Source: an uncultured Gammaproteobacteria bacterium
GTDB taxonomy: Bacteria > Pseudomonadota > Gammaproteobacteria > Steroidobacterales > Rariloculaceae
Assembly: GCA_963810755.1 (NCBI GenBank)
Contig: CAWEOP010000008.1
Coordinates: forward strand, 648,631 to 712,630
Length of the DNA stretch: 64,000 nucleotides
Reading direction: 5' to 3'
Numbering within the stretch: position 1 is the first letter of the stretch; every line of letters begins with the position of its first letter. The notes below the pieces were generated by a model. It made no database searches. It was not told where the DNA came from and saw only the letters and a program-made list of their open reading frames with translations. Made by a program: the position numbers and the translations under genes. Positions 7,349 to 53,802 of this stretch are shown one piece after another.

Positions 7349-7355
7349 GGTACAC

Positions 7356-7727
7356 TCAATGCCAATACGGCTTCGTGCCGTAGTGCGTGAACGCCCGATC
7401 GCGGAACGCGCGACCGTCGTCCTTCGTCAATGCCTCGAGCGAGTCCGCCGGGGCGTTCTTGAGCTGCTCTGCGGTGAACGAGACGACGTACCCGCCCTGG
7501 GTCGGGTCGTAGTCGAGCTCGCTCCACGGCACGGGGTGGTATTTCTCGCCCATGCCGAGCAAGCCGCCGAAGCTCACGACGGCAAACAAAATATTGTTGG
7601 AAGTTTTCTCGAGAATGATGTCTTTGACCTCACCGATCTTCTTCCCGGTGGGGTCGTACACGTTCGTGCCGATGGCTTTGCCGGCGCGGATTGCGGTGGT
7701 GTGCCCTGTTACTGTCGTCATCGTCAT
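7356..7727 (-). CDS. PRC-barrel domain protein
   Basis: GKKIGEVKDIILEKTSNNILFAVVSFGGLLGMGEKYHPVPWSEL is PRC-barrel-like. AAGGAGG lies just upstream of the ATG pair at 7727/7721, and 7721 has the better spacing. Confidence 0.8.
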   Translation of the reverse strand: MTMTTVTGHTTAIRAGKAIGTNVYDPTGKKIGEVKDIILEKTSNNILFAVVSFGGLLGMGEKYHPVPWSELDYDPTQGGYVVSFTAEQLKNAPADSLEALTKDDGRAFRDRAFTHYGTKPYWH

Positions 7728-7775
7728 GGCCTCCTTGTTTGAGTTGCGGCAGTGACGATGCACGAAGAGTGCCAA

Positions 7776-9531: not shown

Positions 9532-9681
9532 CGCTGCCCCCGAGCGTGTGCGCCGCAGAATACCACTGCGCGAGCCTCCCGCTTCCGCCGAGTGGCGCTG
9601 CGTGCAACGGACGCGGGCCGGCCTCACCGCCACGTTCGGCACCGTCGCGGGCCGCGCCGGATCGCGAACGGTGAACGGGCG

Positions 9682-10962
9682 TCAGCTCTTTGCGGCGCGC
9701 TGCCGCACGGTCGGATCGTCCTCGCGCCCGAGCGCGTTCGACCACGTGAGAGCCTCGATCTGCAGTTGCGGCAGCTCGCCCGTTTCGCACGGGTCTCCCT
9801 TCGCCAGGAGCGCCGAAACGGTCGCGTCGTCCGTGCGCTCGAGTGCTTCGACCACCTGCAGCAGGTGACCCAGCGGACCGCTGCGCTCTAGCAGCGCAGC
9901 GCGCACGTCGTCGGGGAACTGCAAATGTTCGATGAGCTCGGTCATCGGCGTTTCGAGCAGCGCGTCGAGCAGCGACAGAATGCCCGTCATGAATGCTCGG
10001 TCTTGCAAGCGTCGATCGTTTGAACGCTGCCCCGCTAGCAGCTCCATCAGCTTGCCGCGCGCGGCGGCGAGCTGCAGTAACGGGGTCGGGAAATGGCCGC
10101 TGCTGTCGTGCGCGAACAAGAGTAGCTGTAGCCAACGCTGCAACTGGCGGCGGCCAAGGATCTTGAGTGCGTGCGCGAGCGACTGGATCGGCGAACGAAC
10201 ACCCGTTCCCACGGAGTTCACGACGCGCATCAGCTTATAGCTGAGCTCCGGCGCCTGCTTGAATGTGCGCTCGATCTCGGCCGCGTCGGCGTGCTCGTCG
10301 AGCGACTGCTCGAGCAGGCGCATGATCACGCGCTTCGACGGATCGGCGCGCCGGCCCTGCATTAGCACCGGCCGTGCAAAGAAGTAACCTTGAAAAAGGT
10401 CGAACCCCAGTTCGCGGCACTGGTCCACCTTCATGCGCGTGTCAACCTTCTCGGCGAGCAGCGCCACGCGTCCGGCCGAGCGGGCTGTCGTGACAAGCGC
10501 GGGTAGATCGGCGTCAGCGGTCGCGAGCACGTCGATCTTGACGATATCGATCAAGGGCAGCAGGGACGCGTGGACGGCGTCGATCTGCACGACATCGTCG
10601 AGCGCAAAAGAGAACCCGCGCTCGCGCAGGTCTCGGCACCGCTCGACCACCTCCGGCGTGATCCGCACGTGCTCGAGCAGCTCGATGACCGTGCGGTCCG
10701 GCGGCAGCAGCTCCACGACGTCGGACATCAGCAACGCCGCGTCGAAGTTGATGAACGCGCGTGCGTCGCCGAGCACCGACGCGATGCCGAGCTCGTTGAA
10801 TGCAAAGTGGATCACGCTCGCCGTCGCGGTCTTGTCGTCCGTGACGTGCGCTGCGTTGGTCGTGCCGGACCGGAACAGCAGCTCGTAGCCGATGGTGTCG
10901 CCGATGAGGTCGATAATCGGTTGGCGGGCCAGCCAGAATGCGGGTCGTGAGGGCACGCGCAA
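9682..10962 (-). CDS. EAL plus HDOD domain signalling protein (COG3434-like)
   Basis: IGYELLFR, KIDV and FDLFQGYFFARP are EAL-domain blocks. The C-terminal half (LMRVVNSVGTGVRSPIQSLAHALKILGRRQLQRWL) is HDOD-like. The start is TTG/GTG. Confidence 0.85.
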   Translation of the reverse strand: MRVPSRPAFWLARQPIIDLIGDTIGYELLFRSGTTNAAHVTDDKTATASVIHFAFNELGIASVLGDARAFINFDAALLMSDVVELLPPDRTVIELLEHVRITPEVVERCRDLRERGFSFALDDVVQIDAVHASLLPLIDIVKIDVLATADADLPALVTTARSAGRVALLAEKVDTRMKVDQCRELGFDLFQGYFFARPVLMQGRRADPSKRVIMRLLEQSLDEHADAAEIERTFKQAPELSYKLMRVVNSVGTGVRSPIQSLAHALKILGRRQLQRWLQLLLFAHDSSGHFPTPLLQLAAARGKLMELLAGQRSNDRRLQDRAFMTGILSLLDALLETPMTELIEHLQFPDDVRAALLERSGPLGHLLQVVEALERTDDATVSALLAKGDPCETGELPQLQIEALTWSNALGREDDPTVRQRAAKS

Positions 10963-11016
10963 GTATTCCCGGCCTGCGCGCCGTAGAACAGGAACCGGCG
11001 CACACCTCGTGGAGCC

Positions 11017-11508
11017 CTACTGCAGCCCGCCGCGCACGGACGTGATCCGCTGCGTGTTGAATCCGAGCCAATGCATGCGGCCGACGTAGCGCGCGTGCTC
11101 GACCTTGATGCAGCGATCCATCACGACGGAGACGCCGCCTTCCTCGGCGATGCGCGCGCCTTCCTCGTTGATGACGCCGAACTGGCACCAGAGGTTCTTG
11201 GCACGGATCGCAACGGCGTCTCGCGCGATGCCCGGCAGCGCGTCGGGCGCCCGGAACACGTTGACGATGTCGACGGGCACCGGCACGTCGCGCAGGCTCG
11301 GGTAGCTCTTCTCGCCCAAGATCTGCGCCTCGCGCGGATTCACGGGAATGACGCGATAGCCGTGCCGCTGCAGGTAGAACCCGACGAAGTGGCTCGCGCG
11401 CAGCGTGTTGCTCGACAGCCCGACGATCGCGATCGTTTTTGCCTCGCGCAGCACGCGCTGGATCGTGAGCGGATCCTGGTACGCGTGAAGGTCGAATGCC
11501 GTGCTCAT
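11017..11508 (-). CDS. CoA-binding domain protein
   Basis: 163 aa from MSTAFDL. AIVGLSSNTLRASHFVGFYLQRHGYRVIPVNP is a CoA_binding_2 signature. Its ATG overlaps the metY stop (ATGA at 11505-11508). Confidence 0.85.
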   Translation of the reverse strand: MSTAFDLHAYQDPLTIQRVLREAKTIAIVGLSSNTLRASHFVGFYLQRHGYRVIPVNPREAQILGEKSYPSLRDVPVPVDIVNVFRAPDALPGIARDAVAIRAKNLWCQFGVINEEGARIAEEGGVSVVMDRCIKVEHARYVGRMHWLGFNTQRITSVRGGLQ

Positions 11509-12818
11509 CGCGCCGCTCCCGCAGGGGCGGCCGCGCGCGCACGCGCGAAGCCCTGCTCGAGGTCCCAGATCAGATCGTCGACGTCCTCGATGCCGACCGA
11601 CAACCGAATCGTGCCCGCGCGCACGCCGGCCGCTACGAGCTCTGCTTCCTCGAGCTGCCGGTGCGTCGTGCTGGCCGGATGAATCACGAGGCTCTTCACG
11701 TCGCCGACGTTCGCGAGATGCGACCAGAGCGTCACGCCGCGGATGAACTCCTGGCCGGCTTCGCGGCCGCCGCGGATGTCGAACGTGAATATCGAGCCCA
11801 CGCCGCGCGGCAAGTACTTCTCGACGAGCGGCCGATAACGGCTCGCGGGAAACCCGGAGTAGGTGACGTTCGAAACGAAGTCGTGCTTCTCGAGGTAGCG
11901 CGCGATCGCAGCGGCGTTCGTCACGTGCCGGTCCATTCGCAGCGACAGCGTTTCGAGACCTTGCAGGAACAGGAACGCGTTGAACGGGCTCAAGCACGCG
12001 CCGAGATCGCGGAGCGTCTCCGCGCGCAGCTTCATGAGATAGCCGTAGGTGCCGAACGTCTCGTGGAACTCCAGGCCGTGGTAGGCGGGCGAGGGCTCGG
12101 CGATCACGGGGAACCGGCCGTTCGACCAGTTGAACGTGCCCGAGTCGACGACCACCCCGCCGATGCTCGTGCCGTGACCGCCGATGAACTTGGTGGCCGA
12201 GTGCAGCACGATGTCCGCGCCCCATTCGATCGGCCTGCAGAGATACGGCGTCGCGAACGTGTTGTCGACGAGCAGCGGGATCCCGTGGTCGTGCGCGATC
12301 TTCGCGATGCCCTCGATGTCGAGCACGTTGCCGCCCGGGTTGCCGATGGTCTCGCCGAAGAACGCCTTCGTGTTGTCGCGCACGGCTTTCCGCCACGCGC
12401 CGAGGTCGTCGGGGTCGACCCATGTGATCTCGACGGACATCTTGCGCAGCACGTGCTTGAGCTGGTTCACCGTGCCGCCGTAAAGCGCGGCGGAGGACAC
12501 CACGTGGTCGCCGGGCGAGAGCAGCGTGAACAACGCGGCGGCCTGAGCCGCGAGGCCGCTCGCGAACGCGACCGCGCCGCAGCCGCCCTCGAGGCTCGCC
12601 ATGCGCTCCTCGAATACCGCTGTCGTCGGATTCATGATCCGGGTGTAGGTGTTGCCGTATTCCTGGAGATTGAAGTACGCGGCCGCGGACTCGGGGTCCT
12701 CGAACACGTAGCTCGTCGTCTGATAGATGGGTACCGCGCGCGCTCCGGTATTCGGATCGGGGCGCTGACCGCCGTGGACTTGGCGGGTGTCGAAGCCGAA
12801 CGGACGTGATTCTTCCAT
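11505..12818 (-). CDS. metY: O-acetylhomoserine sulfhydrylase (PLP-dependent)
   Basis: 437 aa. FGFDTRQVHGGQRPDPNTGARAVPIYQTTSYVF and HSATKFIGGHG (PLP lysine) are typical of MetY/Cys-Met metabolism enzymes. Confidence 0.9.
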   Translation of the reverse strand: MEESRPFGFDTRQVHGGQRPDPNTGARAVPIYQTTSYVFEDPESAAAYFNLQEYGNTYTRIMNPTTAVFEERMASLEGGCGAVAFASGLAAQAAALFTLLSPGDHVVSSAALYGGTVNQLKHVLRKMSVEITWVDPDDLGAWRKAVRDNTKAFFGETIGNPGGNVLDIEGIAKIAHDHGIPLLVDNTFATPYLCRPIEWGADIVLHSATKFIGGHGTSIGGVVVDSGTFNWSNGRFPVIAEPSPAYHGLEFHETFGTYGYLMKLRAETLRDLGACLSPFNAFLFLQGLETLSLRMDRHVTNAAAIARYLEKHDFVSNVTYSGFPASRYRPLVEKYLPRGVGSIFTFDIRGGREAGQEFIRGVTLWSHLANVGDVKSLVIHPASTTHRQLEEAELVAAGVRAGTIRLSVGIEDVDDLIWDLEQGFARARAAAPAGAAR

Positions 12819-12837
12819 CGACGCTCCTTGCGAGTCT

Positions 12838-14037
12838 TTAGCGCGCGAGAAACTCCTGGATCATAGGTGTCTGGCGAGCCTCTTCCAACAGGAAGCAGTC
12901 GTGCCCGTACGGCGCGTCGATGATCTCGAGCCGCACTTCCTTGCCCGCGGCGCCGAGCGCTGCGGCGAGCTCCTCCGAGTCTTGGGGAGGGTAGAGCCAG
13001 TCGGAGCTGAACGCGATCAGCAGCGAGCGCGCCTTGATCGCGCGCACTGCGTCAATGAGACTCCCGCGGCCGTACTGCCGCGCGAGATCGAAATACGACA
13101 GCGCGCGCGACATGTAGAGATAGGTGTTCGCGTCGAAGCGTTTGACGAAGCTCTCGGCCTGGTGGCGCAGATAGCTCTCGATCTCGAACTCGGGGTCGGT
13201 GAGCAGGTAGCGAATATCGTCGGAGAATTGCAGCCGCCGGCCGAACTTGCGCCCGAGCGCGAACGCCGAGAGATACGTCATGTGGCCCAGCATGCGCGCC
13301 ACGCCCATGCCGTGCGTCGGCGCGCGGCCCGTGCCGTAGTAGTGGCCGTCCTGCCAATCCGGATCGGCCGTGATCGCGTTGCGCGCAATCGCGTTCCAGG
13401 CGACGCCCTGCGGCCGCAACGCGGGTGTGCTAGCGATCGAAATGATCGCGTCGACGTCGTTGCGGTAGAGCACCGCCCACTCGAGCGCCTGCATGCCGCC
13501 GAGCGAGCCGCCCGCGACCGCGGCGAGCCGATCGATGCCGAGCTCGCTCAGGAACGCGCGCTGGGCGCGGACCATGTCGGCGACGGTGATCACGGGGAAG
13601 CTGCTGCCGTAGGGCCGGCCGGTTGCCGGGCTCGTGCTCGACGGTCCCGTCGTGCCACGGCAGCCGCCGAGCAGGTTCGTGCTGACGACGAAATACCGCT
13701 CGGTATCGAAGGCCTTGCCGGGCCCGATCATGCCGTCCCACCAGCCCAAGGCGCGGCCGCGGTCCGCGTCGCGCTCCTCAGCGGCGAAGCCGTCGCGAGT
13801 GCCCGCGGCCGGGGCGCTGCTCGCGTAGCCGGCGGCATGCGCGTCGCCGCTCAGCGCGTGGCACACGAGGATCGCGTTGTCGCGCGCCGGCGCGAGCGTT
13901 CCGTAGGTCTCGTACGCGATCCGTACGGGATGAAGCTCCTGCCCGCAGTCGAGCCGCAGCGGCTCCGGCAGATCGAGGAAACGAGTGTCGACCGTGCCGA
14001 CGGAGCCCTCGGTGCTGTCGCTCGAGCGCACGCGCAT
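12838..14037 (-). CDS. metX: Homoserine O-acetyltransferase
   Basis: LDCGQELHPVRIAYETYGTL..NAILVCHALSGDAHAAG and GGSLGGMQALEW match the MetX alpha/beta-hydrolase signature. I took the start at MRVRSS (14037); the ORF-track maximum is 14160. Confidence 0.9.
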   Translation of the reverse strand: MRVRSSDSTEGSVGTVDTRFLDLPEPLRLDCGQELHPVRIAYETYGTLAPARDNAILVCHALSGDAHAAGYASSAPAAGTRDGFAAEERDADRGRALGWWDGMIGPGKAFDTERYFVVSTNLLGGCRGTTGPSSTSPATGRPYGSSFPVITVADMVRAQRAFLSELGIDRLAAVAGGSLGGMQALEWAVLYRNDVDAIISIASTPALRPQGVAWNAIARNAITADPDWQDGHYYGTGRAPTHGMGVARMLGHMTYLSAFALGRKFGRRLQFSDDIRYLLTDPEFEIESYLRHQAESFVKRFDANTYLYMSRALSYFDLARQYGRGSLIDAVRAIKARSLLIAFSSDWLYPPQDSEELAAALGAAGKEVRLEIIDAPYGHDCFLLEEARQTPMIQEFLAR

Positions 14038-14176
14038 CGCGCGAGTGTATACGTGATGCCCGCGCGGCGCGCTTAGACAGGGGTCGGCGTCGCGGCGTAT
14101 GATCCCGCGTCTCCGCGACAGCGGAACACGACGACTCCAAGACCAGAAATCTGACGACAATATTAAGGAGCAGACG

Positions 14177-14746
14177 ATGGCTCAGGCGGCGGCAAAAAAG
14201 GTCGATAACGGCGTCAACGTAGGGGCTCTGCTCGAGGCGCGTGAAGCGCTCCGCAAGGCACCCGAGGCGGCCAAATTCACGTGGCGGGCCTCGTGCAAGT
14301 GGAAGAACGGCACGCACAGCCGCACCCAGGTGGCTGGGTTTCACGGGCTCGGCGCAGAGCAGAAGCACAAGACCGAGTTCATGTTCGAAGCGGATCACCC
14401 CGAGATCTTCGCGTCCGAGGACATGGGCGCGACACCGGTCGAGTTCGTGCTCGTCGGTCTCGCGAGCTGCCTCACCGCGGGCGTCGCGGCAGTCGCGCAG
14501 AACCGCGGCATCCAGATTCGATCCATCGAAGCGAAGCTCGAAGGGTCGATGGACATCCAGGGGATCCTCGGCATCGACAGCGACGTGCGCAACGGCTACG
14601 ACGACATCAAGGTGACGTTCGACATCGACGCGGACGCGACGCAGAAAGAGATCGAAGCACTCGTCGCGCAGTCGCAGAAGCGCTCGGCCGTGTTCGACAT
14701 CGTGACGAACCCGACCGACGTGACGGTCGAGGTCCACAAGCGCTGA
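14177..14746 (+). CDS. OsmC/Ohr family protein
   Basis: AAGGAG lies 6 nt upstream of ATG 14177. GATPVEFVLVGLASCLTAGV contains the conserved OsmC Cys region. Confidence 0.85.
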   Translation: MAQAAAKKVDNGVNVGALLEAREALRKAPEAAKFTWRASCKWKNGTHSRTQVAGFHGLGAEQKHKTEFMFEADHPEIFASEDMGATPVEFVLVGLASCLTAGVAAVAQNRGIQIRSIEAKLEGSMDIQGILGIDSDVRNGYDDIKVTFDIDADATQKEIEALVAQSQKRSAVFDIVTNPTDVTVEVHKR

Positions 14747-14776
14747 GCGCGGCCGGCCCGCGCGGGGGCGTGGCAG

Positions 14777-14840
14777 CGAACCCGGGGCTTCCGATCGAAC
14801 CCGGAGCGTTCCATCGAACCCGGAGGTTCCATCGAACGGA
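14777..14840. repeat. Imperfect tandem repeat, about 19 nt x 3.4
   Basis: The copies are cgaacccggggcttccgat (14777-14795), cgaacccggagcgttccat (14796-14814), cgaacccggaggttccat (14815-14832) and cgaacgga... (partial). Unit lengths of 19/19/18 are not multiples of 3. Confidence 0.7.
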
Positions 14841-16081
14841 TCACGACCGTCGTCATCGGTGCCGGGCACACCGGGCTCGCGGTCAGCCGGCTGCTGACCG
14901 AGCGCTCGATCGAGCACGTGCTGCTAGAGCGCGGCGAGATCGCGAACTCTTGGCGCCGCGAGCGCTGGGATTCGCTGCGTCTCCTTACGCCGAACCGGCA
15001 GAGCCGGCTGCCGGGGTACGCGTACGACGGCGCGAACCCGGACGGCTACATGACGATGGCCGAGGTCGTCGAGTTCATCTCGGGATTCGCACGCGTCTGC
15101 GCGGCGCCGGTCCGCACGCAGACCGACGTCATCGCAGTGCGGCCCGCGGATGACGGCGGCTATCGCGTCGTCACGAATCGCGGCGAGCTGCGCTGCCGCA
15201 GCCTCGTGATCGCGAGCGGCGCCTGCAACGTCGCCGTCGTGCCGGGCGTTGGTGCGGGGGTTCCGTCCGCGATCCGGCAAGTCACGCCGTTCGACTACGG
15301 AAATCCGAGCCGTCTGCCCGACGGCGGTGTGCTCGTCGTCGGGGCGTCCGCCACCGGCGCGCAGCTCGCGGACGAGATCCGCCGGTCGGGGCGCCGCGTG
15401 ATCATCTCCGTCGGCGAGCACGTACGGTTGCCGCGCACCTATCGTGGCCGCGACGTGCTCTGGTGGATGGAAGCGAGCGGCATCTGGAACGAGCGCTACG
15501 ACGAGATCGACGACATCGCGCGCGCGCGCAAGCTGCCGTCGCCGCAGCTCGTCGGCTCGCCCGAGCGCGCGACGCTCGATCTCAACGCGCTGCGCGCGTC
15601 GGGCGTCGAGATCGTGGGGCGGCTGTCGGCCATCCGCGACGGCCGCGCGCTGTTCTCGGGCGGGCTGCGCAATCAGTTCGCGCTCGCGGACCTGAAAATG
15701 AATCGCCTGCTCGACACTTTCGACGAGTGGGCGCGGAGCGCGGCCGACCTCGACGTCGGTCCGCCCGAACGATTCGAGCCGACACACGCGCCCGCGGCGC
15801 CGCGGCTGCAGGTCGATCTCGCGAGCGGAGAGATCCGCTCGATCGTTTGGGCGACGGGATTCCGGCCCGACTATCGGTGGCTCGAGGTTCCGGTGCTCGA
15901 TACCAAGGGGCGGCTCCGCCACGACGGCGGCGTCGTCGACGCGCCGGGGATGTACGCGATCGGTCTCCCGGTACTACGGCGGCGCAAGTCGACGTTCATT
16001 CATGGCGCGGAGGACGACGCGAGGGACATCGTCGAGCATCTCGCTCGCTCGCTCCGTGCGACGGCTTCGTCTCGTGCATAA
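14831..16081 (+). CDS. FAD/NAD(P)-binding flavin-dependent oxidoreductase (COG2072/CzcO-like); start codon unresolved
   Basis: The ORF-track start (GTG 14918) cuts off the in-frame Rossmann motif TTVVIGAGHTGLAVS (14843-14887). No ATG/GTG/TTG lies between the in-frame TGA at 14744 and that motif. ATC 14831 follows GGAGG by 4 nt. Later motifs include WRRERWDSLRLLTPN and a second GxGxxG (VVGASATGAQLA). Confidence 0.75.
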   Translation: MERITTVVIGAGHTGLAVSRLLTERSIEHVLLERGEIANSWRRERWDSLRLLTPNRQSRLPGYAYDGANPDGYMTMAEVVEFISGFARVCAAPVRTQTDVIAVRPADDGGYRVVTNRGELRCRSLVIASGACNVAVVPGVGAGVPSAIRQVTPFDYGNPSRLPDGGVLVVGASATGAQLADEIRRSGRRVIISVGEHVRLPRTYRGRDVLWWMEASGIWNERYDEIDDIARARKLPSPQLVGSPERATLDLNALRASGVEIVGRLSAIRDGRALFSGGLRNQFALADLKMNRLLDTFDEWARSAADLDVGPPERFEPTHAPAAPRLQVDLASGEIRSIVWATGFRPDYRWLEVPVLDTKGRLRHDGGVVDAPGMYAIGLPVLRRRKSTFIHGAEDDARDIVEHLARSLRATASSRA

Positions 16082-16120
16082 ACAGCAGCTTACGAGACTA
16101 ATGTGAAGGTGTTTGGAGTA

Positions 16121-16134
16121 CCCTCCGCGGAGGG
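16121..16134. repeat. CCCTCCGCGGAGGG palindrome, intergenic copy
   Basis: Perfect 14-bp palindrome between the convergent stops at 16081 (+) and 16155 (-). The same 14-mer recurs at 45710, 45819 and 46340, with 13/14 matches at 40832 and 46382. Confidence 0.85.
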
Positions 16135-16154
16135 TGGCCGCGCGGCTTCGGCCC

Positions 16155-17174
16155 TTAGTGCCTGGCGCTCTTATCCGTGCAATTGAACGGCATCACGCGC
16201 TCGGCTGGGCGCCAAACCCACGACCGCCTGCCCTCGATCGGCGCGGTCAACGAATCGGGGTCCGTGATCGACAGCGTGTAGTTGAGACGGCTGCCGTCCG
16301 CGCTCGGCGAGAAGCGCTCGACCAATTTGGCGGAGGGGCCCATCGGAACGCCCATGTTGTTGACATACGGCTCGTTGAGCCGCGTGGTTTCGACGACGAG
16401 AGTGCCTTCTTCCCAATGGCCGACCGAGTAGCCGAGCGGCGTCCGCGGCGCCGCCGCGTCGGAGCTCTCGCGCATGTGGATCGTGCGGAGCGTGTCGTAT
16501 TCCTCCATTTTCAGCGCGATCGTGTCGCCGCGATCGACGAACTCGATCGGAAACGGCTGCCGAATGATCGCCGGCATGCCCTTCGGCGTGCAGCCGACCG
16601 TGGTCGTGTCCTCGACGGGGTTGAAACGCGCGGCGGCTTGCCGCGCCTTCTCCGTCAACGGCCAAGTCAGACCCGCGAACAGCGACGCGGGATTCGCGTC
16701 CGGATCGTCGAGGTCGGAGGCCCACGTGCGAAACAGCGTGGTCGACGCGGACGCGGTTCCGGACTCGAACAGCGCGCGGTCCGATCCGTAGCCGAGCGCG
16801 TTCGCCGCCCAGAGGGGCTTCGAGTAGCGCCACATCACGAGCTCTTGCCCGTCTCCTGCCAGCAGGTTCGTTCCGTACATGCGTACGCCGGACCGCTTGG
16901 AGGGCCAACCCGCCGCTTTCACCGTGTCGCCGACCTTGAAGATCTCGAGCGGCACGTTCATCCGCCGAAAGTTATTGAGGCCGGCGCTTTCGATGTCCCA
17001 AGTGACGGTTTTGCCCGCCGCGTCGGTGGCCTGCACGAGAATCCGCGCGTGCGGGTTCTGCCACGCCACGTCGATGAGCTTGCCTTCCACTACCACCGAC
17101 TTGGTATCGTCGTACTCGCTGTAAGAGTGATGGGCATTGGCCGCAAGCGTGATCGTGAAGGACGCGATTCGCAG
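16155..17174 (-). CDS. Natural fusion of a D module (DUF6152-like) to a P-family domain; start uncertain
   Basis: FTITLAANA|HHSYSEYDD...VAWQNPHARILV...KVGDTVKAAGWP is the D module. It is followed by CTPKGMPAIIRQPF, GHWEEGTLVVETT, YTLSITDPDSLTAPIEG and FNCTD, which make up the P domain. The only nearby start is CTG 17174 (giving MRIASFTITLAANA). The ATG at 17390 adds 72 Arg-rich residues, and the ATG at 17260 is out of frame. Confidence 0.7.
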   Translation of the reverse strand: MRIASFTITLAANAHHSYSEYDDTKSVVVEGKLIDVAWQNPHARILVQATDAAGKTVTWDIESAGLNNFRRMNVPLEIFKVGDTVKAAGWPSKRSGVRMYGTNLLAGDGQELVMWRYSKPLWAANALGYGSDRALFESGTASASTTLFRTWASDLDDPDANPASLFAGLTWPLTEKARQAAARFNPVEDTTTVGCTPKGMPAIIRQPFPIEFVDRGDTIALKMEEYDTLRTIHMRESSDAAAPRTPLGYSVGHWEEGTLVVETTRLNEPYVNNMGVPMGPSAKLVERFSPSADGSRLNYTLSITDPDSLTAPIEGRRSWVWRPAERVMPFNCTDKSARH

Positions 17175-17373
17175 GTCGCGATCGAGAGCGTTCGGCGCGT
17201 CGCGACGGATACGTGACGACGAGCCGCCGCAGTGCGCCCAAGGACATCGTCGAGACGCATCGTGTTTGGCTCCTGCTCGGCTGCGGAGGGGCCGATGAAT
17301 CGTACGTTGCGCGCGCGCGCAGCGATAGTGGCTAGCCCGAGGCGAAGTCGCGGCCGCCGACGCGGCAGCGCGG

Positions 17374-18375
17374 CTAGCGTGAGCTAGCATCGCCGCCGGC
17401 AGCTTCTTCGGCGCGCAAGGCCGACAGCATGCCGCGCAGGCTGTAGTTCCCTTCGTGGCAAGCGTATTCGTAGATCGGCCCGTTGCTCTTCTTCCAGTAG
17501 ATCGCGGCGGTCCACGGCCGCGTCCAGACGGTGGGATCCTCGACGGTGAACTCGTAGCGCAGCGTGTCGTCGCTCACGCGCGTGAATCGCTCCGTGAGCC
17601 GCAGGTTCTCGTCAGAGAAGCGGAAGTAGCCGCCCATCGGGCTGCCGGAAGAGGGGAAGTTCGTCGTGTCGACGACGAGCGTGTCGCCGTCCCAGTGGCC
17701 TCGTGAGTCGCCGAGGTACTGCCGAATCGCCGGCGACACGTGCGGCCGGCCATCGAGCGGAATCATGCGCGCGTCGTGGATCTTCTCCATTTGAATCGCG
17801 ACGTCGCTCGGCGATTGGATGATCCGATAGACGCTCATGTACGCGGCGAAGAGATCGGGGAAGCCGTAAGTGATGCAGCGATCGGTGATCGAGAGATCGC
17901 TGGCGCTGCGCGCGCGGGCGGGTTGCGCGGCGGCTCGCGCGGCGCGGCGCTGCGTGGCCTCCGGCGTGAGCGGCGGCAGCCGTCCGTCCGCGGGATCTTC
18001 GATGAGCGACGTGCGGCGCTCGAAGTAGCGATTGGGCACCCAGTTCTGGCTGTACGTGCCGGTCGCGCCGAGCTGACGCGGACGGTTCTCGTCGAGCAAC
18101 GCGAGGTAGAGCGAGTCGCCGAACACCGCGTCCGCTTCCGCGTTGAAGAGCTCAGCGGCCCGCGCCTTCAGCGCGGACAGCTCGTCCTCGGTGAGTAGCG
18201 GCTTACCCGCGAGCTCGGGCGGCCGCTCGAGCGGCGTGGCGCTGTTGTTCTCCCAGGTACCCTGCAGATCGGGCTTGCCGTTCGCGAGCCTCGGCACGGC
18301 CCACGGCGTTTGGGCGATCGCCTGAGTGCCGCAGCACCACGTCGCGAGAGTAACGGCCAGCAATGATCTGCGCAT
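17374..18375 (-). CDS. Exported P-family paralog P3 (uncharacterised)
   Basis: Signal peptide MRRSLLAVTLATWCCGTQAIAQ. Motifs present: GKPDLQGTW, RCITYGFP, IPLDGRPH, GHWDGDTLVVDTT, YEFTVEDPTVWTRPW and YEYACHEGN. Confidence 0.85.
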   Translation of the reverse strand: MRRSLLAVTLATWCCGTQAIAQTPWAVPRLANGKPDLQGTWENNSATPLERPPELAGKPLLTEDELSALKARAAELFNAEADAVFGDSLYLALLDENRPRQLGATGTYSQNWVPNRYFERRTSLIEDPADGRLPPLTPEATQRRAARAAAQPARARSASDLSITDRCITYGFPDLFAAYMSVYRIIQSPSDVAIQMEKIHDARMIPLDGRPHVSPAIRQYLGDSRGHWDGDTLVVDTTNFPSSGSPMGGYFRFSDENLRLTERFTRVSDDTLRYEFTVEDPTVWTRPWTAAIYWKKSNGPIYEYACHEGNYSLRGMLSALRAEEAAGGDASSR

Positions 18376-18505
18376 GAGCGGTGACTTTACACCCGGCGTT
18401 CGCGGGAACGAAAGTCGTCCGGTGTTAGCGCCAGGACGCGCGAGCCGCTATGCTTTCCACCGCCGTCACACTAACTCCGAACGGTCTACCAAGCGAGCAC
18501 ATCCG

Positions 18506-20990
18506 ATGAACTCGACGATGTGGAAGATCGCGCTTCGTACCCTGGCGCGCGACAAGAGCTACGCCCTGATCAACGTTGCCGGCCTCGCGATCGCGGTGGC
18601 GTGCTGCCTGCTGCTCGGCATCTATCTGCGCAGCGAGCTCACCTACGACCACGGCCACACGAACTACAAGCGGATCTTCCGTGTCGTGAACGAGTTCGAG
18701 ATCAACGGCAAGCTCGATCGTTTCGCGGTCACCTCGCCGATGCTGGGACCGATCCTCAAAGACGACAACACGGACGTGGCAGCCTACGTTCGCTTTCTCA
18801 CGTCCAACACGCAGCGCTTCATTCAGCACGGCGACGTCGGCTACTACTGGGACAACGTCTTTCTCGCGGACGTGAACGTTTTCGACGTGTTCACGCACAA
18901 AGTGATCTACGGCGACCCGAAAACGGCGCTCGTGCCGCCGAACGCAGTGGCCGTGAGCAGGACGCTGGCCGAGCGCTATTTCGGCGACAAGAACCCGATG
19001 GGCGAGACCCTCACCGTCGACGGCAACGAGGTGGAGATCACGCTCGTGTTCGAGGACTTGCCCGCCAACACGCATTTGAAATACGACCTGTTGTTCTCGC
19101 CGAACATACCGCTGTACGCGATACCCGATGACGTCGTGCAGCGCCGCCAGAGGCTGTTCAACGTCGGCTGGTACACGTATCTGGTGCTGCCGGAGAACTA
19201 CGATCCGTCCAAGTGGGGCGACGTGTCGAAGGAGTTCTTCGACCGGAACATGACGGAGTTGGGCGCCCGGATCAACGCGCAATGGCGCAGCTGGTTGCAG
19301 CCGCTCGCGGACATCCATTTGCACTCCGACGTGCCAGCGGATCTGCCGACCGGCAACCTCTACTACCTCTACGGATTCATCGCGGTCGCCGTGTTCACGC
19401 TGCTCGTCGCGTGCATCAACTACATGAACCTCGCCACGGCGCGGGCGGCGAAGCGCGCGAAAGAGGTCGGGATGCGCAAGGTGCTCGGCTCTAACCGCAG
19501 CGCGCTGATCATGCAGTTCCTCGCGGAGTCGCTGCTGCTCGCGGTCGTTTCAGTGGTGATCGGTGTGCTGCTCGTGAAGCTCATCGTGGCGTTCACTCCG
19601 ATCAGCGCACTGCTCGGTATGCCGATTTCATTGAGCTTCACGGAGACGCCCGAAGTGCTCGGGTGGGCCGTCGCGCTCGCGTTGATCGTGGGGTTGGGTG
19701 CCGGGCTGTATCCTGCTTTCTACCTCGCCTCGATCGCGCCCGTCTCGACGCTCGTCGGCGGTGCGCGCGGCAGCACGCGCAGCTCGAGCTTGCGCGAGGG
19801 GCTCGTGTTCGTGCAGTTCATGATCTCGATCGCAGTCATGGCCTGCACGCTGATCATGGCGTCGCAGATGCGTTACATCTCGACCATGTCGCTGGGGTTC
19901 GAGCGCGAGAACAAGCTCGTCGTGACGCTGCGCGGTGTGGACACGATCACGAGCAGCGACGCGATCAAGACCGAGCTCTTGCGCGACCCCAATGTTCTAG
20001 GCGTGTCGTGGTCGAACTCGCAGATGGGCGGCAACTTTCCGACCAATGTGCTGGGCCTCGAGAACAACGAAGGCGTGATCGAGAACACCACGATCACGCA
20101 CATGGCCGTGGGACCGGAGTTCGTCGACGTCATGGGCTTGCAGATCATCGCCGGCCGCGCGCCCGCCGACGAGATCCCTAGCGCGGCGGCCGACGCTCCG
20201 GCAGGTCCGGGAGGCCCGCGGATTACCGAGATCGTCGTCAACGAGGCGACGGTCCGCGGGCTGCACTGGGAGGAGCCCCTCGGCAAGCGGTTCGAGCTCG
20301 GCGGCGGCGGGCCGAACGCGCAGAAGGGCACGGTCGTGGGTGTCGTGAAGGACTTCAATTTCCGCTCGGTGCACGACGCGGTCGCAGCCGTTCGCGATCT
20401 ACCGGCAGGTCGACAACTTCACGCAACTGCCGCCGGCGCTGCGCCAAATGCAGCTGCGGCCGCTCGTGCTGAACATCTCCGGCAACGACGTGCGCGGCAC
20501 GATCGAGCGCGTCCGGGAAACCGTCCGCAAGTTCGATCCGATCCATCCGTTCGTGTTCGATTTTCTCGACGATTCCCTTGACCGGCTTTACGCCGCGGAC
20601 GAAAGGCTCACGAAGCTGATCGCGATCTTTTCCGGCTTCTGCATCTTCATCGCGTGCCTCGGCCTCTTCGGGCTCGCGTCGTTTTCGGCCGCGCAGCGCA
20701 CACGCGAAATCGGCGTCCGGAAGGTGTTCGGCGCGCGCACCGGGCAGATCATCGCGTTGCTCGCGCACAAGATCGTTTGGCTCGTGATCGGCGCGGCGGC
20801 GCTCGCGAGCGTGCTCGCCTATCTCGCGATGCGAGCGTGGCTCGAGAACTTCGCATTCCGGACGAGCATCAATCCGCTGATCTTCGTGCTCGCGGCGGCC
20901 GCGGGCCTCGGGATCGCTTACGTGACGGTGGTGCTACAGTCGATGAAGGCCGCTCGCGCGCACCCGGTGAAGGCGCTGCGCTACGAGTAG
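18506..20990 (+). pseudogene. FtsX-like (MacB-type, duplicated) ABC permease without ATPase domain; frame break near 20380-20390
   Basis: MWKIALRTLARDKSYALINVAGLAIAVA is a typical FtsX-family N-terminus. ORFs 18326..20581 and 20448..20990 join as ...VVKDFNFRSVHDAV/QPFAIYRQVDNFTQLPPALRQMQLRPL... after a 1-nt correction. The C-terminal REIGVRKVFGA block is the second FtsX unit. Confidence 0.8.
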
Positions 20991-33706: not shown

Positions 33707-34160
33707 CTACTCGGGCTTCGCGGATTTCGATTCCGGTTCGTAGATCGGGGTAACGCCGGTAAACAAAGCGTTGCCGCCGCCATCCACGACGGTAAGCGCG
33801 TAAGCGATCGTCGGAAAGTTGCGTGCGCGCGCACCGGTCACCTTGACGACGTCGCCGGGCTTCAGCGAGTCCCGCTTCCATCCACGGCGCATCAAGGTGT
33901 TCGGGCTCGGCAGCTCGAAGTTCCAGTTGGCGGTTTCTCCGTTCTTGTCGGTCACGTCGACGTAGAGCCGGGCGTGCGGGCTTTTCCATTCGAGCGTGGT
34001 GACCTTGCCCTCGATCAGCTACTTTCAGCTCGAAATCGAATTCCGACTGCGAGTGATGGGCCGACGCGGGTGTGAGTACGAGACTGATGCCGGCGAGGAC
34101 CGGCAGTAGAGACAAACACCTCTGCATCGATAGCACGACTCGTGAAGTAGCTCCGTTCAT
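33707..34160 (-). pseudogene. D module D2 (DUF6152-like small exported protein); frame break near 34019-34024
   Basis: MNGATSRVVLSMQRCLSLLPVLAGISLVLTPASA|HHSQSEFDFELKV then shifts frame to LIEGKVTTLEWKSPHARLYVDVTDKNGETANWNFELPSPNTLMRRGWKRDSLKPGDVVKV.... ATG 34160 overlaps the P4 stop (ATGA). Confidence 0.7.
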
Positions 34161-34990
34161 CGGAACAGCTTCACGTCTTGCTCGTCGTCCAGGCAAATCT
34201 CTTCGAGCATCGTGGTGTCCGCCTGGAACGCCATTTCGATCGTGACCGACCAGGGCTTCGTGTAGGCCTTTGGATCATTCACCGCGATCTCGACCTGCAT
34301 GATGCCGAAGTTGACGCGCTTCAGCCGCTCGGTGACGCGTGCGGATTCCGTGATCGGACTACCCTGAATGTCGAGCCACATGTCGTCACGAATCCCGTTG
34401 GTCTCGATGACGAGCGTGTCTCCCTCCCAGTGCGCCGTCGAGTAACCGTTCCAGGTGGGGTTCGGGTTGTCGGGCAGCGGCCGGCCGTCCAGGAACACGT
34501 CCCTGTAGGCCGCGTTGAATTCATGCAGCATCACCATCTCTCCGGGGGTCTGCACGATCTTGATGTACTGCGGCAGCGTCCAGGCGCGCGGAAAATTCGG
34601 CGGCTTGCAGTAGGTGTGGGGATCTTCCCTGCCGCCGTTGGCACGCCTCGTCACCATCTGCTCCTTGGACCACTCGGTGTAGGGCAGGCCGTCCGGCAGC
34701 TTGATCCCTAAGTTGATCTGCTCGCGCGCCATGCGCTCTTCCTGGACGCAGTCCTTTTCCTTGCAGTAGTCCTTGGCGGGCACATTGGCAAACCAGATGC
34801 CGGAGAAATCAGGCTTGCCTTCGCGGGTACGCGGCGCCGGGGCTTTCAGATCCGGCGCACCGCTCGCGGTGCGCGGTATTCCCGGCGTGGGATAGTCCAG
34901 CCACTGAGCCAGGGTCACCGCGGGACTTGCCCCCAGCACGAGCAGGGCGAGCGCAGACCAGACTGGTGGGGTGCGGTTGGCGATCGGCAT
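34157..34990 (-). CDS. Exported P-family paralog P4 (uncharacterised)
   Basis: I took the start at MPIANRTPPVWSALALLVLGASPAVTLAQ (34990). Motifs present: GKPDFSGIW, YCKPPNFP, FLDGRPLP, AHWEGDTLVIETN, VEIAVNDPKAYTKPW and EEICLDDE. Confidence 0.8.
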   Translation of the reverse strand: MPIANRTPPVWSALALLVLGASPAVTLAQWLDYPTPGIPRTASGAPDLKAPAPRTREGKPDFSGIWFANVPAKDYCKEKDCVQEERMAREQINLGIKLPDGLPYTEWSKEQMVTRRANGGREDPHTYCKPPNFPRAWTLPQYIKIVQTPGEMVMLHEFNAAYRDVFLDGRPLPDNPNPTWNGYSTAHWEGDTLVIETNGIRDDMWLDIQGSPITESARVTERLKRVNFGIMQVEIAVNDPKAYTKPWSVTIEMAFQADTTMLEEICLDDEQDVKLFR

Positions 34991-51297: not shown

Positions 51298-51431
51298 GAT
51301 CATCTCCCCCAAAGTCCGATTCCTGCTCGAGCGCAATCGTGGCCGATATGGGGAGAAATGCCAATCCTTTGGGGGCGGCAATCGCCGGGAAGGCCGTGCT
51401 AATGTCATTGCGCATCAAGAGGGGGGTACAT

Positions 51432-51803
51432 ATGAGAGCTCGGCCTATTCTCGTCGCGGCGCTGCTGACGGCGACGTCCGCCCTGGCGCACCACAGCAAC
51501 TCGGCGTTCGACCCAGAGAAGGTGGTCGTGCTCAAAGGCACGGTCACGCAATGGCTGTGGACGAACCCGCACGTGTGGATTCATCTCGCGGTCGACGATG
51601 GCAATGGCGGCAAGACCGAGTGGCAGATCGAGGGCCGCCCGCCCGGCGTGTTGGCTCGTTCCGGCTGGTCGAGGACGATCTTCAAGCCCGGTGACACGAT
51701 CACAGTCGATTTCAGCCCGGCGCGGGACGGCAGCCACACGGGTCTCGCCACACGCGTCACGCTCGCCGATGGCACCGTGCTCGGACAGGCCTCCCCGCAA
51801 TAG
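51432..51803 (+). CDS. D module D3 (DUF6152-like small exported protein)
   Basis: AGAGGGGGG lies 5 nt upstream of the ATG. The sequence is MRARPILVAALLTATSALA|HHSNSAFDPEKVVVLKGTVTQWLWTNPHVWIHLAV...RSGWSRTIFKPGDTITVDF. Confidence 0.8.
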   Translation: MRARPILVAALLTATSALAHHSNSAFDPEKVVVLKGTVTQWLWTNPHVWIHLAVDDGNGGKTEWQIEGRPPGVLARSGWSRTIFKPGDTITVDFSPARDGSHTGLATRVTLADGTVLGQASPQ

Positions 51804-51825
51804 CTCGCGGGTGAGGGAGGACATC

Positions 51826-52587
51826 ATGTCGAAGACCACTGGATTACTGTCCGTCGTGCTCGTGTGTCTGCTGCTGGGAGCGACGCTGTCCGTTCGCTCG
51901 CAGGAGACCGCGGCTCGTCCGGACTTCTCGGGCGTGTATTTCCCGTTCAACCCGAACGCCGCGCCTGCCGCACCGCGCGGGGCGGGCACGCCGCCGCGAC
52001 CCGTCGCCGTGATCGACGGGCGTGCGGGCCGGCCCGACACCGCGCCCAAGCTCAAGCCCGAATACTTGGCCAAGTGGGAGGAGATGCGGAAGTCGCGAAT
52101 GGCGGGATCGTCCGAGACCGATCCGAATGCCAACTGCCTCTCCGCCGGCATGCCCGGAATGATGTCGATGACCTACGGCATGGAGCTCAACCACACGAAG
52201 GACAAGATCACCATCTACGGCGAGCTCAACGACGTGTATCGACGCATTTACCTCGACGGCCGCAAGCCGCAACCGCGCACACTCGACGATCCGACGTTCG
52301 CGGGCTACTCCGTGGGGCATTGGGAAGGGGACACGCTCGTCGTCGAAACGCAAGCGATACGCGAGGACACGCTGCTCGACCTGTTCTCGCCGCACAGCGA
52401 TCAGCTCACCGTGCAGGAGCGGATCAGATTCACAGAGCCCGGCGTCCTCGAGGACCGTCTTACGGCAAGCGACCCGAAGGCGTTGACCGAACCCTTCACG
52501 CAGATTCGTACCTATCGGAAAGCGTCGCCCCCGAACGACGAGCTGCGTGAGTTCTCGTGTGCGGAGGGGCTTTCGTCGGTGAAGTGA
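51826..52587 (+). CDS. Exported P-family paralog P6 (uncharacterised)
   Basis: GGGAGG lies upstream of ATG 51826. Signal MSKTTGLLSVVLVCLLLGATLSVRSQ. Motifs present: RPDFSGVY, NCLSAGMPGMM, YLDGRKPQ, GHWEGDTLVVETQ, LTASDPKALTEPF and EFSCAEG. Confidence 0.85.
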   Translation: MSKTTGLLSVVLVCLLLGATLSVRSQETAARPDFSGVYFPFNPNAAPAAPRGAGTPPRPVAVIDGRAGRPDTAPKLKPEYLAKWEEMRKSRMAGSSETDPNANCLSAGMPGMMSMTYGMELNHTKDKITIYGELNDVYRRIYLDGRKPQPRTLDDPTFAGYSVGHWEGDTLVVETQAIREDTLLDLFSPHSDQLTVQERIRFTEPGVLEDRLTASDPKALTEPFTQIRTYRKASPPNDELREFSCAEGLSSVK

Positions 52588-52630: not shown

Positions 52631-53017
52631 ATGAATTGCAGATCGATACGCAACGCGTGGTTCTGCGCGTTGAGCGCATTGATGTGGGCGACCACGGTCT
52701 TTGCGCATCACTCCGGCGCGATGTTCGACGACACGCAAATGCGGTCGCTGTCTGGAACGGTGCGCGAGTTCCAATGGCACAACCCGCATTGCTACATCCA
52801 GCTGATGGTGCCATCGGCCACGGGAGGCCCTGACGAGGAATGGAGTCTGGAAATGGCCGCGCCAATGTACCTCTACAACTTGGGCTGGCGCCCCTCGACG
52901 CTCAAACCGGGTGACCGAATCACCGTGAAGATCTCGCCGCTGCGCAAAGGTGACAGAGGAGGGCTTGTTTCGGAGGCGGCAACGGCCGATGGCAATCCGA
53001 TCGGGAGAAAACCATGA
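52631..53017 (+). CDS. D module D4 (DUF6152-like small exported protein)
   Basis: The sequence is MNCRSIRNAWFCALSALMWATTVFA|HHSGAMFDDTQMRSLSGTVREFQWHNPHCYIQLMV...NLGWRPSTLKPGDRITVKI. Confidence 0.8.
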   Translation: MNCRSIRNAWFCALSALMWATTVFAHHSGAMFDDTQMRSLSGTVREFQWHNPHCYIQLMVPSATGGPDEEWSLEMAAPMYLYNLGWRPSTLKPGDRITVKISPLRKGDRGGLVSEAATADGNPIGRKP

Positions 53018-53802
53018 ACGCTGCGCGCCACGGCTTGCGTATCGGTCTGCTGTGTTCCGTGCTCGGCCTGGCCGCGTGCTCTGCGAAGGAGACGGATCCA
53101 CGCGTCGCAAAGTTTGCGCAACTACCGGATTGGAGCGGAATCTGGGTCTCGGCAGAACCCATCGGGAAAATCGGTATCAGTGGCTATCCCGAGATGGAAG
53201 ACCCATTCAACGATTGGAAAATACTGGGCTTCAGCGCCCCATACAACGAGGCCGGCAAGGCTGCACTCGGACAGTTCATGGCGCAAGCCGAGCTCGCAAA
53301 GGCAGAGAAGTCGACTTCGGGTTGGAGTTTTCCACAGATGATGGAAGCGCCGACACCGCTGCAGTTTACGATCACCCCGGACGAGACGCTGATCGTCAAC
53401 TTTTACCGCGATGTTCGCCATGTCTACACCGACGGACGCGACCATCCAGCGGAGCAGGATCGCTGGCCCACGCCCTGGGGAGACTCAGTGGGCCACTGGG
53501 AGGGCGATACGCTCGTGATCGACACGCTGGCCATCCAGCGACTTGCCATCGGCCTTCCTCTTCCCCCCTTCTCGGAGCAAGCGCGCTACGTCGAGCGCCT
53601 GCGCAAGACCACTCCCGATCGCATTGAATCGGAGGTTACGGTCACCGACCCGGCCACGCTCACTGAGCCATGGGTCATCAACCTCGCATACAAGCGCGCG
53701 CCGATGATGGATCGCATGTTCCACAATCTATTCGACAACGATCGCGACAGCATCAGCGGCGATACATTCACGATCGATCCGCCGAAATCCGCGAGTCCCT
53801 AA
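53014..53802 (+). CDS. P-family paralog P7, lipoprotein form
   Basis: The ATG overlaps the D4 stop (ATGA 53014-53017). The lipobox is LGLAAC. Motifs present: PDWSGIW, YTDGRDHP, GHWEGDTLVIDT and VTVTDPATLTEPW. Confidence 0.8.
   Translation: MNAARHGLRIGLLCSVLGLAACSAKETDPRVAKFAQLPDWSGIWVSAEPIGKIGISGYPEMEDPFNDWKILGFSAPYNEAGKAALGQFMAQAELAKAEKSTSGWSFPQMMEAPTPLQFTITPDETLIVNFYRDVRHVYTDGRDHPAEQDRWPTPWGDSVGHWEGDTLVIDTLAIQRLAIGLPLPPFSEQARYVERLRKTTPDRIESEVTVTDPATLTEPWVINLAYKRAPMMDRMFHNLFDNDRDSISGDTFTIDPPKSASP

Follow-up and report, generated by a model that had tools for sequence, protein, structure and literature searches.

Does the minus-strand open reading frame (ORF) at 16155..17390 of this 64,000-nucleotide stretch (contig CAWEOP010000008.1, from an uncultured member of the Rariloculaceae; hereafter "the window") encode a natural fusion of two protein modules, or does it join two genes by mistake? 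A preliminary description, made from the sequence without database searches, had read in this ORF a complete "D" module followed by a "P" domain. As both families also occur in the window as separate neighbours, it had proposed that they act together physically (the "Rosetta-stone" inference). Judging by its homologs, the ORF very probably belongs to a large family of exported, uncharacterised ~345-residue proteins in which D, a DUF6152 domain, is fused N-terminal to P. Taken as a whole, the explanation that combines this family identity, a frameshift near the gene start and a periplasmic D-P unit is given a probability of about 0.8. Public databases already contain the D-then-P architecture itself, automatically labelled "DUF6152 family protein". 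New here are the corrected start and the frameshift, the recognition of P as a separate FABP-like module that no model covers, the His-His/Asn-Pro-His site, and the distribution of the family.

The ORF (411 residues in the ORF listing of the window) matches Pfam DUF6152 (PF19649) at residues 80-166 with E=1e-18 and 67.6 bits, against a cutoff of 27, and this match covers model positions 5-91 of 98. The model spans the first 98 mature positions only, and the C-terminal 230 residues, which form the P module, have none: in the Pfam scan neither these 230 residues nor P3, the P paralog next to the fusion, matched a model, and the NCBIfam scan of the fusion and P3 returned no match. With the Pfam threshold relaxed to E<=10, all P paralogs gave sub-threshold matches only (DUF4948, Tsp36_N, Inhibitor_I78, DUF1918). 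P3 retrieves at least 8000 proteins from the database, all of them "hypothetical" and devoid of a Pfam domain. The motifs quoted in the preliminary description (AHHSYSEYDD, WQNPHARILV, CTPKGMPAIIRQPF, GHWEEGTLVVETT, and FNCTD) are all found in the ORF, and its reading of a D module followed by a P domain agrees with the Pfam match and with tblastn searches inside the window. There, the D part finds 51441-51701 (E=1e-12), 34018-33833 (2e-11), and 52703-52948 (2e-6); with E values of 1e-12 to 2e-6, its homology to the stand-alone copies D2-D4 holds. The P part, aligned with P1-P7 and homologous to them, finds 52075-52566 (2e-12), 53227-53670 (1e-9), 17877-17515 (P3, 1e-7), 34690-34253 (3e-7), 931-1281 (5e-7), and 49833-49642 (1e-4). 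In total, the 64 kb hold one fusion, three D, and six P copies.

The junction between the two modules is informative. Alignment shows that stand-alone P proteins of the window run from a signal peptide to PDFSG(I/V)W, a helical stretch, C..G.P, and the barrel. After D, the fusion continues with TLFRTW, the helix LTEKARQAAARF, and GCTPKGMP, so that its P N-terminal segment is the counterpart of the PDFSG(I/V)W-to-helix portion of stand-alone P, minus the signal peptide. P had been said to start about 90 residues after D; P does follow D, and the cysteine of CTPKGMP lies ~104 residues past GWP, although this apparent gap is P's own N-terminal segment, which coevolves both with D and with the P core in direct coupling analysis (DCA). 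Whether D or P, a stand-alone protein has a signal peptide of its own; in the fusion, D's is the only one. On this alignment, the fusion is a mature D joined to a P stripped of its signal peptide alone, the pattern expected from a true fusion of two exported proteins.

The same protein is widespread. A search of a 5.8-billion-protein collection returned 431 homologs of the fusion, more than 100 of which are ~345 residues long, cover 94-99% of the query at 95-52% identity, and all contain PF19649; a few (~344 residues) are already named "DUF6152 family protein [Gammaproteobacteria]". Against 1.84 billion cluster representatives at 50% identity, the fusion profile matched 570 clusters at E<=1e-30, 4536 at E<=1e-10, and 17,874 at E<=1e-3, and among the best 150 nearly all are full-length (~340 residues). 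A scan of GTDB, with one genome per species, found at least 575 encoded relatives. The best 80 of these loci all lie in metagenome-assembled genomes (MAGs), several of them closed chromosomes, often with multiple copies per genome. Their hosts are uncultured Gammaproteobacteria (Candidatus Rariloculaceae, Woeseiaceae, Arenicellaceae, Cellvibrionales) together with Acidobacteriota (Terriglobia and Vicinamibacterales), Rhodospirillaceae, Gemmatimonadaceae, and Binatia. The closest species-level relative among the matches listed comes from a soil Gammaproteobacteria MAG (79%). The family is abundant and highly paralogous in uncultured degraders of organic matter in soil and sediments, and knowing its chemistry would annotate thousands of genes.

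To describe the domain order, hidden Markov models (HMMs) were built for D, for the middle segment (LNK), and for P, and all ORFs of 85 fetched loci and of the window were scanned. This yielded 134 fusion ORFs with D preceding P and none in the reverse order, plus 41 P-only and 30 D-only ORFs; as the loci were chosen through fusions, the proportions of fused and split forms are biased. Nineteen of the 30 D-only ORFs adjoin a P-only ORF on the same strand, with P first in ten cases and D first in nine. The window fusion scores 175 bits with the D model, 126 with LNK, and 258 with P. It keeps all 44 invariant columns of the family alignment (A1), in which D, the P N-terminal segment, and the barrel are collinear. 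The search for further fusions and for their domain order, suggested in the preliminary description, has thus produced hundreds of cases, and all of the 134 surveyed place D before P. As the same arrangement recurs across many phyla, in hundreds of divergent proteins, the fusion is a natural one and not two genes joined by error.

The start of the gene had been left between three codons. Comparison with orthologs places the real one at ATG 17260, preceded by the Shine-Dalgarno sequence AGGAG, as in the option that had called for an additional indel. The N-terminus of an ortholog that is 95% identical (P0001) opens with MRLDDVLGRTAAARFPVSVAARRMLLIAT and reads MRLDDVLGRTAAARFPVSVAARRMLLIATIAPSFAITLAVDA up to HHSYSEYDD. 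Three-frame translation of the window gives MRLDDVLGRTAAARRHVSVATRRTLSIAT in the frame of ATG 17260, and IASFTITLAANA followed by HHSYSEYDD in the ORF's own frame. Both AGGAG and ATG 17260 are kept in two orthologous loci (L001 and L002), and the nucleotide alignment with them reveals a surplus of 2 nt in the window. The frame of ATG 17260 therefore stops early in the window, and the reading frame from the ribosome-binding site (RBS) and ATG through the signal peptide is not intact. This +2-nt indel in the hydrophobic (h) region of the signal peptide explains why the mechanical ORF extends back to the spurious ATG 17390. That codon was rejected as a start since the 72 Arg-rich residues that it adds are absent from every homolog and the conserved RBS and ATG lie at 17260; CTG 17174 becomes superfluous once ATG 17260 and the 2-nt frameshift are recognised. 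Both options are ruled out by the N-terminus of P0001 and by the alignment with the two loci. The N-terminus had also been called vaguely Tat-like. A twin arginine is present in the window and in P0001 and is lost in most orthologs (MTRLTALIAT, MTKALAGLVG, MARQSFLVAI); as it is not conserved, export is probably by the Sec rather than the Tat route.

What the frameshift means for the reality of the gene can be weighed along with the idea that the fusion itself is an artefact, two adjacent D and P genes joined by a lost stop codon or a shifted frame. The latter could appeal to the frameshifts that affect D4, an FtsX-type permease, and the fusion's own signal peptide in the window, and to the split D-P neighbour pairs in the same 64 kb; it is barely conceivable, since the same contiguous ~345-residue protein occurs in hundreds of independent assemblies, closed chromosomes included, its P part, unlike every stand-alone P, has no signal peptide, and the junction is conserved and confidently folded. 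The preliminary description had allowed that the ORF might turn out to be two genes once the sequence was corrected. This is contradicted, as the only frameshift lies in the signal peptide and the orthologs are contiguous. That the window copy is a true recent pseudogene, in which a real +2-nt indel abolishes export and the loss is tolerable given the many D and P paralogs, is rather unlikely, and has arguments of its own: the indel lies outside a homopolymer, the surrounding 15 nt also carry substitutions relative to L001 and L002, there is no canonical in-frame start from 17390 to the His-His codons, and redundancy is high, with D4 frameshifted too. On the other side, the ratio of nonsynonymous to synonymous substitution rates (dN/dS) between the window and L001 is 0.097 (dS 0.25) from His-His to the stop, with no further lesion in these 326 codons. 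Purifying selection on the mature part is thus strong, and the value of ~0.10 points to a sequencing error or else to a lesion that arose very recently. At least three genes are frameshifted in the 64 kb, among them the housekeeping-type permease, and related long contigs (L005) show the same kind of gene fragmentation, as is typical of error-prone long-read assemblies. An assembly error is therefore favoured over a very recent pseudogene, roughly 2:1, because of the two or more additional frameshifted genes and of the fragmented genes in the related contigs.

The permease in question, of FtsX/MacB ABC type, lies on the plus strand at 18326-20990 and is split into two ORFs (18326-20581 and 20448-20990), with the shift near 20380-20450. 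The three frameshifts (fusion, D4, and permease) suggest an error-prone, perhaps long-read, assembly. For the annotation of the window, the gene start is fixed and the frameshift flagged; together with the two others in 64 kb, the latter is a warning on assembly quality.

Conservation within the family concentrates on a small set of residues. In 350 fusion sequences, made non-redundant at 95% and spanning ~35-95% identity, His23-His24 is present in all 348 non-gap rows, Asn48 in 347, Pro49 in 350, His50 in 349, and Glu70 in 324 sequences. These are profile positions, which equal model residue numbers plus 10 (the same residues being H13, H14, N38, P39, H40, and E60 in the structural model). 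Trp159 (349/350), Cys203 (350/350), Cys341 (329 of 330 non-gap rows), Arg238 and Glu295 (350/350 each) are similarly constant, and Gly39, Gly90, and the Gly257-x-Ser259-x-Gly261 motif are among the best-conserved columns. Adding the stand-alone D2 and D3 to the alignment leaves the His-His, Asn-Pro-His, and Glu positions invariant. In 157 of 167 D-containing ORFs, the His-His pair directly follows a hydrophobic stretch with a small residue at -3, and the residue at -1 is Ala (132), Gly (17), or Ser (6) in 155 of the 157; the ten ORFs without this pattern are mostly truncated. Asn-Pro-His is found in 153 of 157 members, and in the window, where ANA directly precedes HHSYSE, it follows ~25 residues past His-His, in WQNPH. 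The -1 and -3 residues obey the rule of signal peptidase I, which identifies His-His, at the level of sequence, as the mature N-terminus after A-x-A cleavage.

An AlphaFold2 (AF2) model of the full-length protein (337 residues, from a 39-sequence alignment) shows a single compact body with a predicted local distance difference test (pLDDT) score of 90.1 and a predicted template-modelling (pTM) score of 0.86. Whether D packs on P had been put forward as a check on the fusion; the relative placement of the two modules appears to be confidently predicted, as such a pTM would otherwise be hard to reach. D alone (model residues 13-112) is modelled with a pLDDT of 93.4, and its predicted strands (E) and helix (H), E13-23, E29-36, E42-49, H52-57, E70-78, and E84-91, follow the order of the oligonucleotide/oligosaccharide-binding (OB) fold. 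In D, the conserved residues map to L12, L3-alpha, and L45, loops that make up the canonical ligand face of OB domains. Foldseek matches D to SSB, PriB, Stn1, and the anticodon-binding domain of LysRS (probability 1.0, TM 0.45-0.6, E ~1e-3), and P to CRABP2, FABP4, and iFABP (probability 1.0, TMt 0.45-0.59, E ~7e-4 and above). Comparison of the family profiles with CRABP2 by hhalign gave probabilities of 0.2-1.1%, which are not significant. As the sequence-level tests against solved structures and CRABP2 fail, the OB and FABP-like assignments of these predicted domains are fold analogies, not family memberships.

Coevolution offers a partial view of the D-P interface. Mean-field DCA (mfDCA; effective number of sequences, Meff, 267), with signal-peptide columns as the non-contact null, recovers the expected antiparallel ladders within P and within D. 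Between the modules, profile pair 73-216 (G63-F206 in the window) scores 1.525, where the null reaches at most 1.051; in random halves of the alignment it comes 2nd and 21st among 14,200 D-P pairs; profile pair 108-303 is reproducible as well (ranks 39 and 31). Six of the 15 top D-P pairs link the P strand 206-211 with the D loops L12, L3-alpha, and L45, and a coupling connects N-terminal residue 18 with residue 93 of L45. There is thus modest support for an arrangement in which the OB ligand face, bearing the His cluster, is turned to the first strands of the barrel.

Several results weigh against this picture as a whole. The domains of a fusion nearly always find their best match in another fusion (133/134 and 130/134), so that the fusions may go back to a single ancient event or to a few. 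The 134:0 order may hence reflect one ancestral event, not repeated selection for a free N-terminus of D; the exclusive order fits such a need, but a founder effect may explain it just as well. D-P pairs above the 99.9% null show no enrichment (15 versus 14.2 expected), and only the top coevolution pairs carry weight. The structural matches are weak (E ~1e-3, TM ~0.5) and generic, and the sequence-profile search of the PDB returned nothing below E=0.5, hence no solved relative. The window copy is not exportable as written. Among 187 immediate non-family neighbours of fusions, there is no conserved partner and no metal-related (copper or nickel) gene. Finally, the literature search found no paper mentioning DUF6152 or PF19649.

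The domain-fusion or Rosetta-stone inference, which reportedly goes back to Marcotte and to Enright in 1999, fits the locus in part. D and P exist, as in such pairs, both as separate adjacent genes and as one polypeptide, whereas here single genomes contain both forms as paralogs, and, since the fusions may derive from one or a few events, the statistical weight is below that of 134 independent fusions. That D and P act as one unit is a reasonable conclusion from the fusions, the split neighbours, the one-body model, and the two coevolution pairs; what the preliminary description had claimed is supported, with the qualifications that the architecture was already in databases, that the fusion events were perhaps one or few and that the adjacency of P3, which does lie directly upstream on the same strand, is local. 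The fusion ties DUF6152 to the P family, which is very large and lacks a Pfam model, and both families should be studied as one unit.

As to mechanism, signal peptidase I would cut after A-x-A, and the invariant His-His would become the new N-terminus. Together with the Asn-Pro-His loop (L12) and the conserved Glu that ends strand 3, it could form a putative metal centre on the OB ligand face, which would pack on the first strands of a barrel holding a small organic ligand. D and P would then make up one periplasmic unit that binds, or transforms in a metal-dependent manner, a small organic compound. This mechanism, which would follow the design of histidine-brace copper proteins and of the NikM/CbiM N-terminus, is tentative and less likely than not. 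Its more specific form, in which DUF6152 would be a new N-terminal-histidine ("brace-like") metal centre on an OB fold, at the mouth of an FABP-like barrel to which it is fused or adjacent, with thousands of members, is distinctly doubtful. If the metal-centre reading were true, the family would be a new group of metalloproteins in the periplasm, either enzymes or metal-ligand binders, expanded to numerous paralogs in single genomes of uncultured Gammaproteobacteria and Acidobacteriota from soil and sea; if the N-terminal histidines did bind metal, a new fold would be added to the short list of histidine-brace-type sites. Testable features are the processed His-His N-terminus, the Asn-Pro-His loop, the Cys pair, and the Arg, Ser, and Glu of the barrel.

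The conserved residues also bear on two other roles for the protein. It could be a metal-independent, non-catalytic periplasmic carrier of hydrophobic or amphipathic small molecules (lipid, quinone, or aromatic), with the ligand in the barrel, the OB domain as a lid or docking module, and the N-terminal histidines used for ligand or partner recognition. The best structural analogues of P are indeed ligand carriers (CRABP2, FABP4, iFABP), and the massive paralogy of the family, scattered without a fixed partner among TonB-dependent receptors, sulfatases, and esterases, is reminiscent of orphan binding proteins. Such a carrier is nevertheless somewhat unlikely, as the positions under the strictest conservation bear polar residues (His, His, Asn, His, Glu, Arg, Ser, Glu), invariant over 35-95% identity, which fits a fixed chemistry or cofactor better, and a strict His-His at a processed N-terminus is a hallmark of N-terminal metal sites. 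D might instead act as an inhibitor-type module: its free N-terminus would enter the metal site of a partner enzyme, and P would be an accessory. TIMP, an OB-fold protein, places its N-terminal amine at the metal site of its target enzyme, and the serralysin inhibitor, a β-barrel, uses its N-terminus likewise. An OB fold with a conserved free N-terminus resembles TIMP, metallo-hydrolases such as Lactamase_B occur among the neighbours, and D2 has a match to Inhibitor_I78 (E=0.023), although below threshold. This role is very improbable given that no conserved target gene lies nearby, that the invariant Asn-Pro-His and Glu beside the N-terminus suggest an intramolecular site, and that neither TIMP nor I38 appears in the Foldseek top 50.

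Comparison with known systems delineates what the putative metal-ligand unit shares with them. D resembles the OB-fold proteins SSB, PriB, and the LysRS domain in that its predicted barrel has five strands, with a helix inserted after the third; it differs from them in lacking sequence similarity and in being exported and not nucleic-acid binding. CusF, a periplasmic Cu(I) chaperone, is an OB-fold functional analogue, yet D lacks the Met-rich CusF motif, and the Foldseek top 50 of the full-length and D-only models contained no CusF, TIMP, or I38. P resembles the calycins (CRABP2, FABP4, iFABP, and lipocalins) in its predicted antiparallel barrel following a short Trp strand and a helical insert, and the PDFSG(I/V)W of stand-alone P recalls the N-terminus of CRABP2, PNFSGNW. 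It differs in being ~190 residues long, disulfide-containing, exported, and here fused to an OB domain; of the calycin Gly-x-Trp strand, the fusion keeps the Trp, and Arg replaces the Gly. Histidine-brace copper proteins include the LPMOs AA9/AA10, CopC, the CuB site of PmoB, and YcnI/DUF1775, and NikM/CbiM carry an N-terminal Ni/Co site. D would share with these a His at mature position 1/2 and a second invariant His (His40 of Asn-Pro-His) on a loop, as far as its sequence tells. In contrast, it is predicted as an OB fold and not an Ig-like, cupredoxin, or membrane fold, and has no copper or nickel genes nearby. D is on this account not a member of a known histidine-brace family, and the resemblance is mechanistic only. 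No paper pairing a histidine brace with an OB fold was found in the literature search.

Features of the fusion gene and of the other D and P copies in the window (positions are those of the window).
Feature	Position	Strand	Basis
Shine-Dalgarno AGGAG, 9 nt 5' of the true start	17270..17274	-	Sequence; conserved in L001 and L002
True start ATG, reads MRLDDVLGRTAAAR...	17258..17260	-	N-terminus of ortholog P0001
Signal-peptide coding region, frame broken; reconstructed as ...TRRTLSIAT[x]IASFTITLAANA, cleavage before HHS	17133..17260	-	P0001, three-frame translation, alignment
Frameshift, net +2 nt relative to L001 and L002; exact site ambiguous inside the stretch	17160..17176	-	DNA alignment, three-frame translation
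Arg-rich stretch added 5' by the mechanical ORF, spurious; runs into the end of P3	17261..17390	-	In no homolog; conserved RBS and ATG 3' of the extension
D module, mature DUF6152, predicted OB fold; begins His-His-Ser, has Asn-Pro-His loop and Glu	16833..17132	-	Pfam, AF2, Foldseek, conservation
P module, N-terminal segment: short strand with Trp (TLFRTW) and helix LTEKARQAAARF	16599..16832	-	Alignment to stand-alone P, conservation, AF2, coevolution
P module, core: predicted eight-stranded CRABP/FABP-like barrel; Cys...Cys, Arg, Gly-x-Ser-x-Gly-x-Trp, and Glu invariant	16173..16598	-	AF2, Foldseek, conservation
Stop codon of the fusion gene	16155..16157	-	ORF listing
P3, stand-alone exported P protein, 333 residues, directly upstream of the fusion	17374..18375	-	ORF listing, tblastn
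D2, stand-alone DUF6152 with its own signal peptide; split pair, D then P	51429..51803	+	Pfam E=2e-33
Stand-alone P after D2, own signal peptide; closest relative in the window of the fusion's P part	51823..52587	+	tblastn, alignment
D3, stand-alone DUF6152; split pair, D then P	52631..53017	+	Pfam E=6e-28
Stand-alone P after D3, lipoprotein-type signal (LGLAAC), without the Cys pair	53014..53802	+	Alignment
D4, DUF6152 with internal frameshift, downstream of P4; split pair, P then D	33710..34160	-	tblastn, ORFs
P4, stand-alone P upstream of D4; 5' limit approximate	34157..34840	-	tblastn, alignment
P1, stand-alone P	490-1320	+	tblastn
P domain at the C-terminus of a 634-residue ORF	49504-51408	-	tblastn

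The surroundings of the fusions are diffuse. In the window as in both orthologous loci, P3 comes before the fusion; P3 orthologs with 77-80% identity stand alone elsewhere, by which P3 was rejected as an obligate partner, and the P3-fusion adjacency appears, from the gene order, to be conserved only locally. A conserved operon is likewise ruled out by the analysis of the 187 flanking genes, in which the commonest neighbour Pfam families each account for at most 5 of 86 or 101 genes. These are sulfatases, TonB-dependent receptors, GSDH/PQQ dehydrogenases, and alpha/beta-hydrolases with esterases, followed by metallo-beta-lactamase folds, glyoxalases/dioxygenases, and tannases, altogether of a diffuse catabolic and uptake flavour. 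Fusions often stand in tandem. A scan of 15.9-18.7 kb of the window for promoter and terminator consensus sequences found nothing. An OsmC gene and a homoserine-acetyltransferase-like (Abhydrolase_1) gene are common to L001 (495-2404) and the window (12838-14746) and are arranged differently relative to the P3-fusion pair, which indicates local rearrangement between close relatives. One further locus (L004, positions 1-17047; ENA ERZ25039547 contig_7727) holds six DUF6152-bearing genes of 293-348 residues in 17 kb, interspersed with genes for a tannase/feruloyl esterase, an alpha/beta hydrolase, a metallo-beta-lactamase/alkyl-sulfatase-like protein, and an IS110 transposase.

The other D and P copies show some variation. 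The frame of D4 breaks between HHSQSEFDFELKV and LIEGKVTTLEWKSPHARLYV, near 34.0 kb, and its upstream ATG at 34160 overlaps the P4 stop as ATGA. Members of the P family may be soluble or membrane-anchored, given the lipoprotein signal of the P protein that follows D3. P3 and P1 (40% identical) define a subfamily of stand-alone P proteins whose N-terminus is extended by 140 residues. The exported 634-residue protein is a second, different P-domain fusion in the window: its C-terminal P domain (PRLANGKPDLTGAW... GRWDGDTLVIES) follows a 400-residue N-terminal part with no Pfam match. Elsewhere on the plus strand, a flavin-monooxygenase-like gene (14750-16081) has its TTVVIGAGHTG motif 5' of the first canonical start (GTG 14918), with no ATG, GTG, or TTG between the prior stop and the motif, pointing to a non-canonical start or a sequence error. 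A DsbA-like thioredoxin-fold gene (EYGDYECPHCG; 33063-33674, plus strand) lies convergent to, and just downstream of, the P4-D4 pair, and may bear on the conserved Cys pair of P domains.

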